Below, in pieces: positions 20,055-43,998 of a stretch of DNA of 64,000 bases. The stretch lies in the IMG/VR virus record IMGVR_UViG_3300043409_001033, positions 1 to 64,000 of that record. The stretch is one strand, 5' to 3'. Position 1 is the first letter of the stretch; each line of letters begins with the position of its first letter. The position numbers were made by a program, and so were the translations under genes. The stretch comes from a virus. A model generated the notes under the pieces. The model was not told the DNA's origin and searched no databases. It saw only the letters and a program-made list of their open reading frames with translations.

Positions 20055-20066
20055 ACTTACTTTTAT

Positions 20067-20076
20067 TTATAAATAT
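20067..20076 (-). promoter_or_regulatory. late-promoter-like motif ATATTTATAA
   Basis: Exact 10-mer 12 nt upstream of the gp13 ATG. Confidence 0.7.
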
Positions 20077-24220: not shown

Positions 24221-25816
24221 TTACACCGTATGAAGTCCGCCAACAATTACATCTCCAAAAAATGAGTTTCTAAGGGCAGTTTTAGCATATCGGGTCAACA
24301 TGAACTTATTAGGGGTAGCTGTATTATAATTATAAATCAAAGGTGTAACTTCGAGAGGAATATAAGGACATAAAGCGGCTCCTGCTTCTAAGAAGTTTGC
24401 ACCTTTAAAGCCCATTAACAAGCGGTTCTCAGTATAATAAGGGTTTTTGAACACTTTATATTGAGAGTTGAATGAACCTACACGTGTATTACCTAAACCA
24501 GACGTAGCTTTACCTACTTCGGCATCAGACATATAACCAGCCATCGACTCTAACACGTTAGCAACTTTTGGCGATACAACAATGAAGTTAGCTTCACCTC
24601 TTACAGTTTTTTGCAAGATAGAGTTAGACACTTTATTGATTTTTGTACCCAAAGTTCTAAACCAATCTTGTTGAGAGTTATAATAACCAGAAGTCATTGG
24701 TGTGAACGCAGTGCCAGTAGAGTTGATTTGGATGTTGTTTTCAGCAGTCCAATAATCACGAGTACCACCAGCAGGCACAGCACTTGAAATCATATCTAAT
24801 ACTTCTAAGTCGATTTCTCTTGCGATACTATCAGACATCATACCAGTAATTTCAGATTCCAAGTCGATACCTTGATACGCCTTAACGTCCTGTATCATTT
24901 CTTGTGTCCATTGCCCTTTTAATTTACGAGTTTTAGCAGAAACTTGTTTTGAAGTCCATTCAGCATAGAACTCAGGAATGTTCAATGAACCAGTTCTATC
25001 TTCAAAGTCACCACGAGCATTATCAACAGTTTGTTTTTGGTAATAAACCAAAGCAGTACCATTTACAACGTTTGCACTTGAACCAGATACCACGAAGATA
25101 ACGTTAGTACCAGTTCCATCGGTAACAGTATACTGTTGATAAACGTTAGCTGGAACAACACCAGAACCAGACAAAGTGAAACCTCTTACAGCCAACACAT
25201 CATAAGATGGTAAAGATGAAGTTGGTACAGATACTAATTTGATTTCGTTACGAGCAACAGAACCAGATAAAGATGAATCAAACCAAACATCTTTAAATGA
25301 ACCAGATGTTACAGTTGTTGATGCAGAAGCAGAGTTTGGTGCAAGTGAATACGTGAAACGACCAGAACCATACAAACCACCAGAAACATCAGCACCAGTA
25401 TCAGTGATACCATATACAGAATCTCCGCTTGTAAATGGTGATTTAGAGTTTGCATATTTGAAATCCAAATAGAACACTAAACCAGTTGGCATTTGCAATG
25501 GTTGAATAGAAACAAACTCTTTTGCAGAAATCAAGTCAGCAAATACCTTACGTACTAAAGGTAAGATAACACCAGCAACTTGTTCACCAGTTCCACCCGG
25601 ATAAGTAGCACCACCTAAGTTAGTTTGGTTAGTTGTTTCTTTTAAAATGTGACCTAATTGGTTATGTAAAAGGTTTGCCATTTGAACTTTTTCAATTGGA
25701 TTCAAGCCTTCCAATAAACCAATTTTCTCATACATTCCTACTTTCTCAGTAGATTTTTGATATTGTTCGTTGATTGCTTTTCTTTGATAATCAGCGAATT
25801 GTTGGAAATTTGACAT
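24221..25816 (-). CDS. gp23: major capsid protein (T4 gp23-like)
   Basis: LPLVRKVF, VSIQPLQMPTGLVFYLDF, AKTRKLKGQWTQEMIQD, EIDLEVL, CPYIPL and LTRYAK. Confidence 0.97.
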   Translation of the reverse strand: MSNFQQFADYQRKAINEQYQKSTEKVGMYEKIGLLEGLNPIEKVQMANLLHNQLGHILKETTNQTNLGGATYPGGTGEQVAGVILPLVRKVFADLISAKEFVSIQPLQMPTGLVFYLDFKYANSKSPFTSGDSVYGITDTGADVSGGLYGSGRFTYSLAPNSASASTTVTSGSFKDVWFDSSLSGSVARNEIKLVSVPTSSLPSYDVLAVRGFTLSGSGVVPANVYQQYTVTDGTGTNVIFVVSGSSANVVNGTALVYYQKQTVDNARGDFEDRTGSLNIPEFYAEWTSKQVSAKTRKLKGQWTQEMIQDVKAYQGIDLESEITGMMSDSIAREIDLEVLDMISSAVPAGGTRDYWTAENNIQINSTGTAFTPMTSGYYNSQQDWFRTLGTKINKVSNSILQKTVRGEANFIVVSPKVANVLESMAGYMSDAEVGKATSGLGNTRVGSFNSQYKVFKNPYYTENRLLMGFKGANFLEAGAALCPYIPLEVTPLIYNYNTATPNKFMLTRYAKTALRNSFFGDVIVGGLHTV

Positions 25817-26942: not shown

Positions 26943-27569
26943 CTATCGACCCAAAATTTGATTTAAAATATGATTTAACTTACTATATTGCTCTTCAACT
27001 TGATAAGAAACAATATTTTCTTGCACAACTTCGGGACTACCACTTCCCAAAATAGAACCATGATTAGAATTTCTTGTAACTAAATCATAAGCTATAATAT
27101 CTAATGATTCAACAATAATATCATCTCCTCTTTGAGAAGTATTTCCCAAACTTCTTGAAGAAACCCCTACTTTATCTCCTAATTTTAAAAACTTAGCAAC
27201 TCTTTGACCTTGTGGAATTTCGGGAAAATCATAAATAGCAATATTTCCATATAATTTATTACCTTTCCACCAAGTATCAACTATTTTATGAGAAACGGTT
27301 TCATATTTTACTTCGGCATCATCATAATGGTCTAATGAACCATATAATTCATTAGAGTTTTTTAATCCCATGTATCTTTCAATAGATTCTTTCAAAACAG
27401 AATAAGGATAAATCCTTCCATTTCCGTTTCTTTCATCAGCAGTTGATAATAAAGTAGGAATTATTAATAATCCATTATCAGATTGTTTATATGACTCGGT
27501 TAATTGTTGTTTTGACAATTGTAAATAACCTAAACTTTCCGTTAATAATTGTTTATTTTGATTTTGCAT
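26943..27569 (-). CDS. gp21: prohead core protease (T4 gp21-like)
   Basis: NGNGRIYP, YGSLDH, VSH, GVSSRSLG and YDLV. Confidence 0.93.
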   Translation of the reverse strand: MQNQNKQLLTESLGYLQLSKQQLTESYKQSDNGLLIIPTLLSTADERNGNGRIYPYSVLKESIERYMGLKNSNELYGSLDHYDDAEVKYETVSHKIVDTWWKGNKLYGNIAIYDFPEIPQGQRVAKFLKLGDKVGVSSRSLGNTSQRGDDIIVESLDIIAYDLVTRNSNHGSILGSGSPEVVQENIVSYQVEEQYSKLNHILNQILGR

Positions 27570-29059: not shown

Positions 29060-30280
29060 TTATTTTCTACCTTTCCAAAATATAGCACCAGCAATTTTCT
29101 TAGCAGTTTCTTCGGGATAACCACTTTTTTCAGCTTTAGATACTATCTTATCAAAACCTTTACCTTTTTTACCAAAATCGTAACCATGTTTAGCCTTTTT
29201 AACGATTTCAGATTTTTCCTCTTTACTTAAACCACTTGAAGGTTTACCAGTTTCGGCTAAATATTGTAAAGTAACTTCTTTTAATCTTTGTTTGAAATCT
29301 TCATCAATACCAGCTTGAGATAAATGTTTATAATACTCAGGGTCTTCACTTAAATGGTCTTTAGCAATTTCTTTAGCAGTCTCCTCGCTATTAGTATGCT
29401 CCATTTCATGTTTAGTTCCTTTTTCTAATTCATCTTTATCAAACTCTTTATCAGATGTTCCATCACCAAGACCTCCAATTAAATTTTCAATCTCATATAA
29501 TTTTTTGATAATTTTCATTCCATTATCTTTATCAACTAATGTATCAGATGTTACTTTCTTTGCTAAATTGGAATCTTTTTGTTTATAATTAGCAATAAGA
29601 TTTGTATAATAAGATGGGTCTTTCTCTAAATTAGCTAAAACTTTTTTACCAGCCTTTAAGGCATCTTTACATTTATCAAATTCAATTGAAAACCCAACAT
29701 TATAAGCATGAGAAGAAACTTGGTCATAAGTTAATTCTTCATTGATACTTATTGGTCGAGCTTTTACTACTTTAATTGCACAACCTTTTTGTTCATTCAA
29801 ATCATCGACACTATAATCATTATCTACTTGTGGGTATTGGTCTAATTTATCTTGATTATGAATTAAAAAATCGGTTGCAACAGAAGTTTCATCATTATCA
29901 ACATTATCTAATTTATTATAAGTATTTTCCAAAAACTCATTAATATCATCCGCACCAATTTGTCTATGTTTATCATTATAGATATAATCAATTGAATTAG
30001 GAATATCTACCGAAATAATATGAATTTCTTTTTCATCGGGTTGTGAAAAATTAATTTTATCTAAAGTTTGTGGTTTAGATTGTTGAATCATTCCATAGTC
30101 TTGCATTTCAAACATCACACCCTTTCTCCTTAGATTATTCAATAACATTTCATAAGTTAATCTTGGTGTAAAACAAGATTTATATTGGGGATATTTAGCA
30201 ACTTCTAATATAAATTGATTTTTGGTCATTTGATTAGAAATAACCTTATTATACAATCTTTGAATAATATTTTTGGACAT
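29060..30280 (-). CDS. head-module protein with two DUF5661-like units and a basic C-terminal module
   Basis: GFSIEFDK...NLEKDPSYY and GTKHEMEH...DHLSEDPEYY; numerous L/I-x-E sites. Confidence 0.6.
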   Translation of the reverse strand: MSKNIIQRLYNKVISNQMTKNQFILEVAKYPQYKSCFTPRLTYEMLLNNLRRKGVMFEMQDYGMIQQSKPQTLDKINFSQPDEKEIHIISVDIPNSIDYIYNDKHRQIGADDINEFLENTYNKLDNVDNDETSVATDFLIHNQDKLDQYPQVDNDYSVDDLNEQKGCAIKVVKARPISINEELTYDQVSSHAYNVGFSIEFDKCKDALKAGKKVLANLEKDPSYYTNLIANYKQKDSNLAKKVTSDTLVDKDNGMKIIKKLYEIENLIGGLGDGTSDKEFDKDELEKGTKHEMEHTNSEETAKEIAKDHLSEDPEYYKHLSQAGIDEDFKQRLKEVTLQYLAETGKPSSGLSKEEKSEIVKKAKHGYDFGKKGKGFDKIVSKAEKSGYPEETAKKIAGAIFWKGRK

Positions 30281-30283
30281 TTG

Positions 30284-30664
30284 TTATAATGTTTGTAATT
30301 TTGAGAATATATCTTTAATTTTTAATAAAATTTCATTCTTTACTTGAGGACTCATTGAAAAATCATCTTCTACATTTTCTTTTAATTTATTAATATGAGA
30401 AAGAATGATTGAAACTTCTTTTAATTTTGATTTAAGAATGGAATAACCTTTTCTTTTTTGTTGTTTGGTAGAATTAGTTTTGATTTGTTTATTAAAAGAA
30501 GAATACGAAATTTCATTGATAAATTTGTTTTTATTTAAAACTTGTTCAACTACTTTTTTTATCTTTTTCTTAGAAATTTTCTTACCTAAGTTTTGTTCAC
30601 CGACTCCTCCTGTAAATGTTGAACCTCCAAGATTAGTAGCATTTGTTGTTAGTCCTCCATCCAT
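30284..30664 (-). CDS. hypothetical head-module protein
   Basis: 126 aa; FTGGVGEQ and FINE-ISY; packed in the head operon. Confidence 0.65.
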   Translation of the reverse strand: MDGGLTTNATNLGGSTFTGGVGEQNLGKKISKKKIKKVVEQVLNKNKFINEISYSSFNKQIKTNSTKQQKRKGYSILKSKLKEVSIILSHINKLKENVEDDFSMSPQVKNEILLKIKDIFSKLQTL

Positions 30665-33353: not shown

Positions 33354-33364
33354 TTGTCTTTTAT

Positions 33365-33374
33365 TTATAAATAT
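33365..33374 (-). promoter_or_regulatory. late-promoter-like motif ATATTTATAA
   Basis: Exact 10-mer 11 nt upstream of the portal ATG. Confidence 0.7.
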
Positions 33375-37562: not shown

Positions 37563-37590
37563 CTTTTATTTATAAGTATAATAAAATAAT

Positions 37591-38850: not shown

Positions 38851-39348
38851 TTATTGATTTTCTTCTTGTTCAGCTTCTTCGGGAGCAAGTGGATTAAATA
38901 CACTATTGGTAGGTTCACTCGTTGGAGGTGTAAAATCAGGTTGTCCACCACCTTCTACTCCTTCTGTTCCTGTTGGTTCTTGCATTGGTGCTTCAATAGC
39001 ACTTAATGGTTTTTTAAGAACTAATAAATCAGTAATAGCCTTTGAAGCTCTATCAATTTCACCAGCAACCGTTAGATTGTATTGCTTACCACTGATTTTT
39101 GCTTGAAAGGCATTTTTTCCAATATAAGTTAATAAAAATGTAAAGTCATTTGCTAAAACTACTTGAAATGTCGTTGGTTTAGGAGCCTTTAATTGAATAT
39201 CATTGATAAAATGAATATATTTTGGACTAAGTAAACTAACTAAAATTTGTTTTAGTTGAGGACTTTTATGAGTAAAAGTTATAATTCTATCAAGATTCTT
39301 CATCTCTTCGAGAATTAACTTTAAAACTTTTTTATTTTGATTTTGCAT
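38851..39348 (-). CDS. hypothetical protein (probable start ATG 39348, MQNQNKK)
   Basis: APKPTTF and a Pro/Glu-rich tail; start chosen because the junction is identical to the protease start junction. Confidence 0.7.
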   Translation of the reverse strand: MQNQNKKVLKLILEEMKNLDRIITFTHKSPQLKQILVSLLSPKYIHFINDIQLKAPKPTTFQVVLANDFTFLLTYIGKNAFQAKISGKQYNLTVAGEIDRASKAITDLLVLKKPLSAIEAPMQEPTGTEGVEGGGQPDFTPPTSEPTNSVFNPLAPEEAEQEENQ

Positions 39349-40606: not shown

Positions 40607-41155
40607 TTATTTCATTAAATTGTCTAATATATTCATTTTTTGGTCAACTAATTTACTAACTTGGTCATCATCGAGTATATTTTCGATGGTTTCTGTTACT
40701 ACTCCATCTTCATTGAATATTTTTCTTGGTTTAGAATTTGATAAATATTCTTTGTACTCATCTTTCAAAGAACGTTTCATTGCTTCTATACTTTTATTTA
40801 TTTGGTATTTTTCCCATTCTTCGTAAAGTCCACTAATTTTCAATTGTGTTTCAAATTTTAATTGACATGAAAAACAATGATTGTATAATTTATACATTCT
40901 TTCATCCATCGGGTCACGCATTTTACACTTACAAGATGGACAAAAGTTTGGTGTTAATACACTTGATTTTAATGAATCAAATTTAGAAATTGATTTTACT
41001 ACTCCATCTTTAAAAATCCATTGTTTTCCATTTTCTTCCCATGTTTCCCCTTCTTTTCGAGTAGATTTTTTTGGTTCGGCATTAAATACTTTTAATGATG
41101 TATCTTCCAATCTTCCTAAAAGTCTGTTACTTATTAATTGTTCTTCTTTTGTCAT
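40607..41155 (-). CDS. hypothetical zinc-binding protein
   Basis: RKEGETWEENGKQW; CPSC...CFSC. Confidence 0.7.
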   Translation of the reverse strand: MTKEEQLISNRLLGRLEDTSLKVFNAEPKKSTRKEGETWEENGKQWIFKDGVVKSISKFDSLKSSVLTPNFCPSCKCKMRDPMDERMYKLYNHCFSCQLKFETQLKISGLYEEWEKYQINKSIEAMKRSLKDEYKEYLSNSKPRKIFNEDGVVTETIENILDDDQVSKLVDQKMNILDNLMK

Positions 41156-41177: not shown

Positions 41178-43154
41178 TTAGCAATTCCAAGCTCTTCTCG
41201 ACCAATAATTAGCTTTAGTTCTATCTTTTCCACCACCTTTAATTCCTTTTGAGCGTGAACAGTATGATTTCTTTCTATCGGGATTATTTTTCTTTATATT
41301 ATAATCTTTTGAACCAAAATTTACTTTAACCACTCTTCCATCTTTACCTTTGACATAAACTTTAAACTTTTTAACATCTCCTCTCATTGGTTTGTTTAGT
41401 GGAACTTTTTTACCTTTGTATTCTGCTTCGGATATTAATTGTCCATTTTGTTGAATACCTTTTAACCAGTCTACTGTTTTATCAAAATCACTATCTGGAA
41501 CATCGTATTCTTCGCAATCACATTCGTTTAATGATGCGTTTGATTTGTCAAATGAACTCATGTATTCTTTTATAGCGTTTAATGCTTGATTTGGTAAATT
41601 TAGATGAGACAACTTAATTCCAAACATATTTGTTATGTTAAAATTATCCGCTGTCCAAATGCTATATTTATTGGAATAAAACCTTATATTGAGTTTACTG
41701 AAATCGAATAGTTTTGTTATTATGCTTATAGCATCTTTTATTTCATTGTCTTGTAGTTCGGCATCTTCGTCATATAACATTGCATTATATATTCTAACGA
41801 ATAATTGAGAGAATCTGTCACCTTCATCTGATAACTCTTCAAAATGTTCTATTTCATCGTCAGTGTATTTTTCAACAGGTTGTTTGTCAATTATTATTAT
41901 ATATTTCTTATTTAAAGATACGGATGCGTCGTACATTTTAGATGAACTTGGAGTAGATACGCACCATTTACTGTTTGCTCCATATTTACAAGATGCTTTG
42001 TGACTCAATGGTGATACGATTGTATACCGTGAATCTCTATAAATATTTACTCTTTCAGATGACTTGACACTACCTTCGTCTAATTTATATTCTTTACTAT
42101 TTTCGCAATCACATTCCATTAACGGTCTGTCTACATTATATGGTTCAATATATACTACTTCTCCATTTGATTTAGAGTATTTGAAAATATCACTTTTAAA
42201 AGTAATTGGTTCTTTTAATCTTTTAACATATTTTTTACCCATGCCTTTTTTTACATAGGCAATTGTAGCATGAGGTTGATATGATGGATATTTATCACTA
42301 TTTTCAAAATTTTTCTTAAAATAATTATGTAGTTTATGTAAAACGGGGGATTCTACATTAAATTTAACTACATCAAACTTATCATTTTCAAATAAATCAA
42401 TCTTAGTAAACGTAACTTCAATTGGATTTTTTAATTTTTGTAAAAGTTGTTCGATTTTATCTACATCGACATTTTCACTAAAACCATATAAAACAGTTAC
42501 ATGAGGTTCATCTTCTTTTCCATAAGAAGAATCATTTTCCTCAGTATATAAATCTTCATCATCTATTTGAGATAAAACATAATTCCATTTTGGAATATCT
42601 AATTGTAACATTAAACAACCAAATTCATGTACTTCTTTCTTTGGTTCATTAGGGTCTATTCCAGTATTTGTCAATAACTCTTTATACATGGTTTTTATCT
42701 CTTCTTCTAATTTTTTATTAATTTCATCTAAATTAGGAATAGAAATATCTCCCGATAAAGTAGGAACAGATTTTTTTGTTGAAATGTATGGTGTCACAAG
42801 TATTTGAGGATTGATTTTTGAATAGTTTCTCATAATAATACCAGCCAAAGAATTTGCTTCATTTTCTATATCAGAACCAGTATCACCAGCGTTGTTATAT
42901 AATTCTTTTTTCTCTAATTGGAAAAAATGTACGATTTCATGGGCTAAACTTCTACAAATATCAGCTAATAATCTATCTTTGACATAAACTACTATTTCAA
43001 TATTTTGTGTATCAAAATGAGCTAAAGTAGAAGTTTGAGATTTATCTTTTGTTAAGATTATTTTTGGTAATCGTTCAACATTAATTTGTTTTATTGTAGA
43101 TAACTCATCAAAAACATATTTTATAAAATCATTAAGAATCTCGTTACAATTCAT
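41178..43154 (-). CDS. multidomain polyprotein: HExxH metallopeptidase-like + 2H phosphoesterase (Acb1/gp57B-like) + SCKYG..KWC domain + basic C-terminal domain
   Basis: AHEIVH (aa 71-76) with downstream ENEAN; PHVTV (217-221) and PHATI (294-298); ASCKYGANSKWC (387-398); KKFKVYVK...VNFG...ANYWS (595-652). Confidence 0.8.
   Translation of the reverse strand: MNCNEILNDFIKYVFDELSTIKQINVERLPKIILTKDKSQTSTLAHFDTQNIEIVVYVKDRLLADICRSLAHEIVHFFQLEKKELYNNAGDTGSDIENEANSLAGIIMRNYSKINPQILVTPYISTKKSVPTLSGDISIPNLDEINKKLEEEIKTMYKELLTNTGIDPNEPKKEVHEFGCLMLQLDIPKWNYVLSQIDDEDLYTEENDSSYGKEDEPHVTVLYGFSENVDVDKIEQLLQKLKNPIEVTFTKIDLFENDKFDVVKFNVESPVLHKLHNYFKKNFENSDKYPSYQPHATIAYVKKGMGKKYVKRLKEPITFKSDIFKYSKSNGEVVYIEPYNVDRPLMECDCENSKEYKLDEGSVKSSERVNIYRDSRYTIVSPLSHKASCKYGANSKWCVSTPSSSKMYDASVSLNKKYIIIIDKQPVEKYTDDEIEHFEELSDEGDRFSQLFVRIYNAMLYDEDAELQDNEIKDAISIITKLFDFSKLNIRFYSNKYSIWTADNFNITNMFGIKLSHLNLPNQALNAIKEYMSSFDKSNASLNECDCEEYDVPDSDFDKTVDWLKGIQQNGQLISEAEYKGKKVPLNKPMRGDVKKFKVYVKGKDGRVVKVNFGSKDYNIKKNNPDRKKSYCSRSKGIKGGGKDRTKANYWSRRAWNC
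41511..42116. repeat. perfect 15-bp direct repeat TTCGCAATCACATTC (encodes ECDCE) flanking one in-frame module
   Basis: Copies at 41511-41525 and 42102-42116, 591 nt (197 codons) apart. Confidence 0.9.
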
Positions 43155-43161
43155 CTTTTGT

Positions 43162-43171
43162 TTATAAATAT
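43162..43171 (-). promoter_or_regulatory. late-promoter-like motif ATATTTATAA
   Basis: Exact 10-mer 7 nt upstream of the polyprotein ATG. Confidence 0.7.
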
Positions 43172-43181
43172 GATTGATAAC

Positions 43182-43207
43182 AAAAAATGCGAACTATGTT
43201 CGCATTT
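43182..43207 (-). terminator. intrinsic terminator
   Basis: AATGCGAAC-ATA-GTTCGCATT followed by TTTT. Confidence 0.85.
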
Positions 43208-43215
43208 AAAAGATT

Positions 43216-43998
43216 TTAACTTAAATATATAAGATTTCCATCATCATCTACAAAACAAATATCTTCCTGATTTTTATAAATAGAATTATACATATCTTTA
43301 TTATCTTTAAATTGTTGATAATGAAATTCACTTATTTCTTCATTTGTCATTGGCGAATTATATATTTCTTCAAACCATTCTCCACTATATAAATCTTTAT
43401 TTGTTTGTTGTTCTCTAAAATATTCTAAATGATATTTTAATTTTTCATTATTTCCAAATTTTGTCAATAAATCATAATAAAGTTTACCATTGTTCAACAT
43501 TAATAAGTTTGCATTTAAACTTTGAATCGTTTCTTTAGTATCATTATACTTTTGATTCATATTTTGAATAACGTCTTCTTTAGCATTTTTTATAAATGAT
43601 TCATTATTAAGATTTGATTTATATTTTTCTAATTGTTTACCTAATCTTAAAATTTCTTTATTTATAGATTCTTCTTGAGATTTCTTATCAATATTTGGTA
43701 GTTCTAAGTAAACATTATATCCTTGAATATTGGTGTATTCAAATAGATTATTTCTTTCAAACATTGGATATAAATTGTAATCAATATTTTGTATATTAAC
43801 ACCATGTAATTTTTCTATACACATAGCATTAGAAACAATATAAACATCATTTAATTCAATATCTTTACCCATCATATCAATAGATAAATTTAAAGGGATA
43901 GATTTGTTTATATTATATTTATTTCTAATATTTCTTACAAATTCAACAATCTTAAACAAAGTATCAAAATTGTAACATAGTATTTCTTGATGGTTCAT
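43216..43998 (-). CDS. stand-alone valyl-tRNA synthetase C-terminal region (tRNA-binding coiled-coil arm) with an unknown C-terminal extension
   Basis: IVEFVRNIRNKYNINKSIPL and KEILRLGKQLEKYKSNLNNESFIKNAKEDVIQ resemble ValRS IRNIR..NI and EI.RL.K...KL.N..FV..AP..VV; no HIGH or KMSKS motif. Confidence 0.8.
   Translation of the reverse strand: MNHQEILCYNFDTLFKIVEFVRNIRNKYNINKSIPLNLSIDMMGKDIELNDVYIVSNAMCIEKLHGVNIQNIDYNLYPMFERNNLFEYTNIQGYNVYLELPNIDKKSQEESINKEILRLGKQLEKYKSNLNNESFIKNAKEDVIQNMNQKYNDTKETIQSLNANLLMLNNGKLYYDLLTKFGNNEKLKYHLEYFREQQTNKDLYSGEWFEEIYNSPMTNEEISEFHYQQFKDNKDMYNSIYKNQEDICFVDDDGNLIYLS

Follow-up and report, generated by a model that had tools for sequence, protein, structure and literature searches.

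The present analysis concerns a stretch of viral DNA of 64,000 nucleotides (nt), positions 1 to 64,000 of the IMG/VR record IMGVR_UViG_3300043409_001033 and hereafter called the window, and within it a gene at 41178..43154 that encodes a protein of 658 amino acids (aa). A first reading made from the letters alone (the original prediction) had described this gene as a late-expressed polyprotein that is possibly delivered by the capsid and cut at its domain borders into separate effectors with an anti-defence role, one of them an Acb1-like 2H phosphodiesterase. The record is a 74-kb virus contig with an estimated completeness of 44%. It comes from a marine phage that has not been cultured and is a distant relative of T4; judged by the capsid protein, the isolates closest to it are Flavobacterium phage immuto (44%), Microcystis phage Mel-JY01 and Rhodothermus phage RM378. 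All genes of at least 80 aa in the region are co-oriented and G+C content is about 27%.

A four-module gene behind a late-type motif

A single open reading frame (ORF) with four modules was found as described, on the minus strand, which the original prediction had left unstated. All the motifs that it listed are present (H72EIVH76, PH218VT, PH295AT, SCKYG..KWC and the basic domain) and the separators LDE144, LEE151, VHE177, LME347, LDE360, LNE544 and ISE576 were all located in the sequence. The layout of the gene is as follows (pI, isoelectric point).

41178..43154, minus strand: whole ORF, 658 aa, 76 kDa, four modules
42795..43154, minus strand: module 1 (aa 1-120), IrrE/M78-like zincin with H72ExxH76 and an E97-N-E-A-N helix
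42621..42794, minus strand: linker 1 (aa 121-178), contains LDE144, LEE151 and VHE177, fast-evolving
42150..42620, minus strand: module 2 (aa 179-335), 2H phosphoesterase with H218-V-T and H295-A-T
42075..42149, minus strand: linker 2 (aa 336-360), LME347, CDCE and LDE360, disordered in both models
41550..42074, minus strand: module 3 (aa 361-535), unnamed CKYG..WC domain, missing from relative P0002
41427..41549, minus strand: linker 3 (aa 536-576), LNE544, CDCE, an acidic EEYDV stretch (pI 4.1) and ISE576
41181..41426, minus strand: module 4 (aa 577-658), small basic domain, pI 10.4, phrog_7595

Module 1 is, by its residues, a compact IrrE-like zincin (HExxH plus a downstream Glu). R61, D65, R68, H72, E73, H76, Q79 and E97-N-E-A-N are invariant in an alignment of 26 homologues, whose sub-threshold Pfam matches are to DUF6782 (18/26 members), Peptidase_M78/IrrE (15/26) and Tox-MPTase3 (8/26), and the atlas look-alikes of the module are viral IrrE-like clusters.

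Module 2 is a 2H phosphoesterase by its motifs, its Pfam matches and its model fold. Within the whole protein it scores 43.8 bits against 2_5_RNA_ligase2 (PF13563) and 36.6 bits against Acb1 (PF23474), and as an isolated domain 47.3 and 39.9 bits respectively, all above the gathering cut-off of 27 bits that applies to both families. H43/T45 and H120/T122 are invariant in an alignment of 24 2H sequences (A3). An AlphaFold2 model based on 24 homologues reached a predicted local distance difference test score (pLDDT) of 89.9 and gave 45 Foldseek matches in the Protein Data Bank (PDB) at E<=0.001; among the matches listed, all belong to the 2H superfamily.

The more precise label 'Acb1-like' held only in part. 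The Pfam Acb1 match is over its cut-off and the best match of a module 2 profile in the PDB was Acb1 of phage BCSR5 (9q2g, 3e-4). However, LigT-like PH0099 (1.2e-3) and the Acb1 of FBB1 (7t26, 1.3e-3) came next, Foldseek ranks the Deinococcus CPDase (drCPDase), Usb1, the rotavirus VP3 2'-5' phosphodiesterase (PDE) and the poxvirus cGAMP PDE above Acb1 with LigT at a rank similar to Acb1, and the closest NCBIfam model was TIGR02258 (RNA 2',3'-cyclic phosphodiesterase, 1.8e-8, under its cut-off). With LigT, Usb1 and viral 2'-5' PDEs matching about equally well, the label is too narrow. Compared with known Acb1 proteins (T4 gp57B; FBB1, PDB 7T26/7T27; BCSR5, 9Q2G), the 2H fold and the two HxT motifs are in common, but identity is just 12-15% in structural alignments, with template modelling (TM) scores of 0.44-0.57, and module 2 sits inside a predicted late polyprotein. 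T4 57B is not known to be a late or a packaged gene.

These matches bear on the substrate, a question separate from that of delivery. Module 2 may heal RNA ends or be an RNase in the way of LigT, CPDase and Usb1, for instance in the repair of tRNAs cut by host anticodon or 3'-end nucleases, and not degrade signals as Acb1 does; we regard this as a serious possibility with a chance somewhat short of even. Besides the nearness of PH0099 to Acb1 in the profile search, the Foldseek ranking headed by drCPDase and Usb1 and the TIGR02258 match, it draws on the fusion of 2H domains of the same family to CCA-adding/poly(A) polymerase, NTP_transf_2 and RNase T-like exonuclease domains. Signal degradation is favoured over it by the Acb1 results in Pfam and at the top of the PDB profile search. 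In addition, 2H domains of the type found in phage polyvalent proteins, which combine several unrelated effector domains in one polypeptide, are reported never to be associated with RNA ligases (Iyer 2017, PMC5512222), and no RNA ligase is present among the annotated genes of the 64-kb window, although no dedicated search was made and the record is only 44% complete.

Module 3 represents a real, large and apparently mostly viral family, with 562 representatives at E<=0.001. The family occurs both as separate proteins of 170-190 aa and as repeated units within giant proteins, with the motif P-L-[TS]-x-x-A-S-C-K-Y-G-A-x-x-x-W-C. Neither Pfam nor NCBIfam gave a family name to modules 3 and 4 or to the neighbouring genes, and a Foldseek search of the PDB with the module 3 model returned nothing at E<=0.001. 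Three candidate identities of module 3 were set aside. GNAT gave in the wide search a best Z of 5.1 and a root-mean-square deviation of ~4.7 over ~90 residues, below the stated noise; PcfJ was matched by one distant homologue at 1.7e-4, below cut-off and with no outcome; and an intein was rejected, the homologous free-standing proteins having their own start codon and no His-Asn being seen at the module end. With the whole protein, phmmer found no match in the PDB and a profile of the whole alignment gave marginal matches only, while megablast of the gene found no match in the phage collection and the single 658-aa protein as query found no relative in viral contigs.

Upstream of the gene lies a primase gene, and two signals separate them.

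43185..43207, minus strand: intrinsic-terminator-like hairpin with a 10-bp stem and a T run, ends the upstream primase-side unit
43155..43171, minus strand: late-type motif ATATTTATAAACAAAAG, 1 mismatch to consensus, holds TATAAACA, abuts the ATG

For the 17-mer late motif ATATTTATAAATAAAAG, 12 matches were counted in the window where 0.78 would be expected, and 11 of them are on the coding strand. The late motif that had been ascribed to the gene is confirmed directly upstream of it, and other copies precede the portal gene (motif at 33358-33374) and the adaptor gene (motif at 20060-20076), with a further copy at 37563-37579. It contains TATAAATA, the T4 late -10 sequence. The motif ends 0-10 nt ahead of the start codon, which leaves little or no room for a Shine-Dalgarno sequence. 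Such an arrangement would be in keeping with a host of the Bacteroidota type, and Flavobacterium is the host of the nearest isolate.

Downstream, several unnamed genes are followed by those for an exonuclease, the large terminase, the portal, Peptidase_S77, a scaffold-like protein and a gp23-type capsid protein. A location near the head genes, as originally described, is accurate in that the terminase is ~6 kb away, but the exonuclease gene stands in between. The gene for the prohead protease was found where it had been placed, and its family is clear.

26943..27569, minus strand: prohead protease (T4 gp21 family), Peptidase_S77 in Pfam at 2.4e-14, phrog_207 at 1.6e-31

These surroundings can be read in two ways. 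A gene among replication and recombination genes (primase, exonuclease) could encode a late cytoplasmic enzyme that is not packaged, an ordinary multidomain fusion of nucleotide- or RNA-end-processing domains joined by flexible acidic linkers. We consider this rather unlikely. No MuF or portal fusion occurs within this record and the best NCBIfam match, TIGR02258, would suit such an enzyme, though it is under cut-off. On the other side stand the terminator followed by a late promoter, and the portal and MuF proteins that elsewhere (P0056-P0060) carry a fused 2H domain of this family.

The joints and the leaders of stand-alone relatives

The joints between the modules carry (L/I)-x-E motifs of the gp21 type. 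Six of the nine L/I-x-E sites of the protein fall within the 124 linker residues (binomial P = 0.002), compared with a composition-aware expectation of 2.6 that reflects how acidic linkers favour the motif, the linker borders having been drawn after inspection. E347 and E360 are in low-pLDDT segments, and the remaining three sites (E256, E315 and E530) are in confident strands or helix of the models. In the 2H model, residues 166-176 have a pLDDT<50, and in that of module 3 the mean pLDDT over the 10 N-terminal residues is 48. The placement of the sites is probably more than chance.

Two of the sites are also conserved. E360 is one of 10 invariant columns among 16 module 3 sequences at 21-39% identity (alignment A2), with a hydrophobic residue two positions ahead of it. 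Directly before the basic domain, LEE is found in HTVC008M, LDE in phage immuto and CDCMLE in metagenome relatives, whereas the basic-domain protein of podovirus HTVC111P begins MAKYKGR at that point, without L-x-E. Conservation at these two joints, ahead of module 3 and ahead of the basic domain, far exceeds that of the neighbouring linker sequence. Among cultured relatives, Flavobacterium phage vB_FspM_immuto (immuto136C_171) and Pelagibacter phage HTVC008M (AGE60465.1) have homologues of the modules. Comparable motifs occur in the head proteins themselves. The capsid protein has ILKE62 at the predicted border of its gp23-type propeptide, where relatives have LLDE, and scaffold-like proteins contain 3.9-4.7 L/I-x-E per 100 aa, against 1.3 for the proteins of the window.

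Stand-alone relatives of three modules begin with short, amphipathic leaders that end in Φ-x-E (Φ, hydrophobic) just ahead of the domain. Those of 2H proteins include MIKLKDLITE and MKIKKYIQFIKE, those of module 3 proteins MKHLKLFENFINE and MIKNFKEFLFE, and that of basic-domain proteins MIKLLELLNE; a protein combining a domain like nicotinamide mononucleotide adenylyltransferase (NMNAT) with HExxH starts with MNLGQYIAE. The tag MKIKSYIQFINES was met in the 2H leaders of L006, L007, L019 and P0029-P0043. In 21/21 stand-alone 2H relatives, [LIVMF]-x-E lies ~3-11 residues before the start of the domain, a GC[VL]M strand.

The leaders were compared with the T4 capsid-targeting sequence (CTS). A strict CTS-like pattern, hydrophobic at the positions matching T4 CTS residues 4, 7 and 8 and with Glu at 10, fits 12 of the 21 2H leaders and 6 of 15 module 3 leaders against 16% of 840 background ORFs (2.5-3.5 fold), with the limit that leaders are homologous within each family and the counts are not independent. 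A T4 review names these CTS positions as those of targeting and processing (PMC9026906). Moreover, linkers of the 658-aa protein align with the leaders (a slash marks the candidate cut): NSKEYKLDE/G with a module 3 leader, and EEYDV...LISE/A of linker 3 with the pro-region of small basic proteins. The simplest reading would be an in-frame fusion of neighbouring cargo genes, each with its own tag, in which the cut sites were retained.

Similar sequence was seen at the start of other proteins of the window. The prohead protease (26943-27569) starts MQNQNKQLLTE/S and a conserved 165-aa ORF (38851-39348), read from ATG, starts MQNQNKKVLKLILE/E. The genes upstream of both end in KNAKSK, and a duplicated gene junction gives the 165-aa protein the protease's own N-terminal leader. 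In addition, a 126-aa ORF (30284-30664) begins MDGGLTTNATNLGGSTFTGGVGEQ and resembles the capsid protein (24221-25816) just past its predicted cut, ILKE/TTNQTNLGGATYPGGTGEQ.

Exchange of modules among relatives

The original prediction had asked whether the modules occur shuffled in relatives. They are independent, and were found alone, reordered or in other fusions. The closest relative, P0002 (97% identical, 461 aa, on a 199-kb contig), corresponds to aa 1-351 plus 542-658 and is without exactly the region of module 3 (aa 352-541). In the 658-aa gene this module is bracketed by a direct repeat.

42102..42122, minus strand: left copy of a 21-nt direct repeat, 15 nt exact, encodes ECDCE
41511..41531, minus strand: right copy of the 21-nt direct repeat, 15 nt exact, encodes ECDCE

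The spacing of the copies, 591 nt or 197 codons, equals the 197 aa missing from P0002. The joints may be crossover points for module gain and loss. A more distant relative, P0004 (59% identical), keeps all four modules, and its module 3 is apparently flanked by another repeated pentapeptide (ENLED), displaced by 5 residues. C-D-C, or C-x-C, also recurs between two L-x-E sites in linkers 2 and 3 of the 658-aa protein, as LME/CDCE (42075-42149) and LNE/CDCE (41427-41549), and the joint of distant relatives reads ELNE/ADCDCMLE/AKYQGR (small proteins in L036, L039, L049, L054 and L058). In relatives that are not close, identity is 14-44% in linkers versus 52-85% in domains. Module 3 is more alike between P0001 and P0004 (79%) than the enzyme modules are (52-56%), but lateral transfer was not accepted on this basis because the basic domain is equally conserved (85%) and constraint explains the values as well.

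Other combinations are widespread. HExxH and 2H occur together, in either order, in many proteins, and elsewhere the HExxH module is fused in either order to 2H, CTP_transf-like, NT5C or NTP_transf_2 domains. In many freshwater relatives, HExxH ends one protein, often behind a cytidylyltransferase-like domain, while another protein, encoded 1-1.5 kb downstream, has the basic domain at its end. Fusions of HExxH with a cytidylyltransferase-like domain of the NMNAT type (GxFxPxHxGH) were noted in L033, L049, L051, L058, L061 and L083, where leaders such as MNLGQYIAE/LLLE/ precede them; these fusion proteins may be a packaged, NAD-related counter-defence enzyme. The basic-domain protein of L033 also bears a DGNHR (ParB-like) segment. 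Module 4 stands alone in Pelagibacter podophages and in records of Nitrosopumilaceae spindle-shaped viruses, and in L020 and L025 the distance from the capsid gene to the stand-alone genes for 2H and the basic domain, which follow it downstream, is 2.6-4.5 kb.

Two further genes of the window belong to this picture.

29060-30280: DUF5661 gene, 406 aa, between the portal and protease genes
40607..41155, minus strand: 182-aa gene, zinc-ribbon-like CPSC...CFSC (CxxC...CxxC), unnamed

DUF5661 is also contained in P0018 (2H plus HExxH) and in P0104, a module 3 protein, and a member of the fusion network is therefore encoded inside the head module. The 182-aa gene is the most conserved neighbour (30 BLAST matches) and lies between HExxH and basic-domain genes in related loci. 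On the other side, the upstream 260-aa ORF (43216-43998) resembles the tRNA-binding arm of valyl-tRNA synthetase (Pfam 24.8 bits, cut-off 25.9).

Proposed head loading, processing and delivery

From the joints, the leaders and the late-type context, we infer a late 'polyvalent' cargo precursor that would be loaded into the head and cut at its joints by the S77 protease, a reading whose chances we hold to be about even. Four domains that elsewhere are separate small phage proteins would have been fused in frame, the three downstream modules retaining their former N-terminal leaders as linkers that each end in (L/I)-x-E. The precursor would be made together with the virion proteins and enter the prohead. 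There, the S77 prohead protease would cut the exposed linker sites, at about E144/E151, E347, E360, E544 and E576, which would free the zincin peptidase, the 2H phosphoesterase, the CKYG..WC domain and the 9.5-kDa basic domain, the short acidic joints being discarded. The pieces would leave with the DNA at the next infection, and the 2H domain would then act ahead of all phage gene expression, on either nucleotide-based immune signals or RNA ends with a 2',3'-cyclic phosphate, which it would remove. A fuller version, in which one late polyprotein yields four injected effectors, the 2H domain destroys cyclic-nucleotide or 2'-5' signals from the moment of DNA entry and the ECDCE joints are DNA crossover points, seems to us unlikely as a whole.

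Several observations weigh against packaging and cleavage, in addition to the limits attached to the counts above. The total of L/I-x-E sites shows no overall enrichment (9, against 7.7 +/- 2.4 in shuffles), and, the genomes being AT-rich, a tripeptide [LIVMF]-x-E turns up within residues 5-20 of about 39-46% of their ORFs. VHE177 and the sites at 142-151 are gone in P0004, P0009 and others. The 658-aa protein's own N-terminus is no clear removable tag: MNCNEILNDFIKYVFDE fits a loose pattern (IKYVFDE) yet forms the conserved first helix of the zincin (F10 invariant), and the site is not kept as L/I-x-E in P0006 or P0009. The gene is parted from the head module by the exonuclease gene, and the built-in zincin could be a rival processing enzyme or be needed for encapsidation. 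As for the gp21-type sites at domain borders that the original prediction had proposed, their linker placement and the conservation of E360 and of the site before the basic domain stand, but their number is at chance and VHE177 is unconserved.

If the protein were instead an unpackaged cytoplasmic enzyme, the L-x-E motifs and the relatives' leaders would be compositional features of K/E/L/I-rich proteins, with which the chance-level count and the frequency of similar tripeptides close to the N-terminus of background ORFs agree. Composition fits less well with an E360 that is invariant inside a disordered segment, with a site before the basic domain that is kept in relatives and absent where the domain starts at Met, and with the excess of the strict CTS-like pattern over background.

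In another alternative, a packaged polyvalent protein is processed by its own zincin-like peptidase or delivered uncut, and the prohead protease is uninvolved. HExxH is a conserved hub in the fusions described above, the catalytic residues of the module are invariant, and autoprocessing has been argued for polyvalent proteins that contain an MPTase (Iyer 2017, PMC5512222). In the N4 virion RNA polymerase, the MPTase region is needed for encapsidation, yet the protein is packaged unprocessed (Iyer 2017, PMC5512222). This alternative is nonetheless improbable in our view. The conserved motif at the joints is a gp21-type (L/I)-x-E, as at the capsid propeptide; stand-alone 2H, module 3 and basic-domain proteins without a zincin still have a leader with L-x-E; and many relatives encode the zincin apart from the basic domain, in a gene of its own.

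The core idea of a head-delivered 2H domain in polyvalent proteins is already published as a prediction. Phage polyvalent proteins were defined with a zincin hub, and 2H was described as a phage-type domain fused to MuF and portal proteins and proposed to degrade nucleotide signals or to act as an RNase (Iyer 2017, PMC5512222); these proposals on 2H were repeated later (Iyer 2022, PMC9503650). The 658-aa protein has in common with these proteins several unrelated effector domains in one polypeptide, the HExxH zincin hub and 2H, and both delivery with DNA and degradation of nucleotide immune signals were predicted there. It differs by its small size (four domains), without a MuF, portal, ART or methylase-helicase domain, by modules 3 and 4 that belong to families without a Pfam or NCBIfam name, and by joints that carry gp21-type (L/I)-x-E and look like retained N-terminal leaders. 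Such joints make the prohead protease a better candidate for the cutting enzyme than the zincin.

The T4 internal proteins IPI, IPII, IPIII and Alt offer a second comparison. The T4-type head is in common (gp23-like capsid, S77 protease), as is late expression, and the stand-alone modules of relatives share with them short leaders, hydrophobics at CTS positions 4, 7 and 8 and the Glu of the cut position (PMC9026906). The 658-aa protein would likewise yield one small basic domain. However, the T4 proteins are single-domain with an N-terminal tag, whereas the 658-aa protein has its tag-like segments in the interior and starts with a folded helix of the zincin. In T4, an Asp at the cut position stops processing and leaves targeting intact. 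A third comparison is with giant phages (phiKZ gp175, 201phi2-1, SPN3US), where numerous proteins of the head and of ejection are cleaved by gp21-related proteases behind a Glu within short motifs, often at several redundant sites. Unlike in the model proposed here, no description of those substrates presents them as fused, independent enzymatic effectors that come apart into separate domains, and the source phage, at ~170 kb, is not phiKZ-like. Finally, a 2025 preprint describes an ejected virion protein that inhibits an effector of the cyclic-oligonucleotide-based anti-phage signalling system (CBASS), and injected anti-CBASS factors are therefore an emerging theme. What is new here is that a small polyvalent protein contains a syntax of leaders and cut sites of the T4 type, together with repeat-flanked module exchange.

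Should the modules indeed enter the head and be separated there by cleavage, the 658-aa protein would offer a concrete and testable example of counter-defence enzymes that are made in advance and arrive with the phage DNA. The timing of arrival would matter where defence relies on signalling, as in CBASS, Pycsar, Thoeris and type III CRISPR. Such a case would also join two lines of work so far treated separately, the capsid-targeting/gp21 system of T4 and the computationally defined polyvalent proteins, and the head protease, not just a built-in zincin, would be able to release effectors. The leader and cut-site syntax is found on 2H, CKYG..WC, basic-domain and NMNAT-like proteins of many uncultured aquatic phages, which suggests a route to the prediction of virion cargo by sequence alone.

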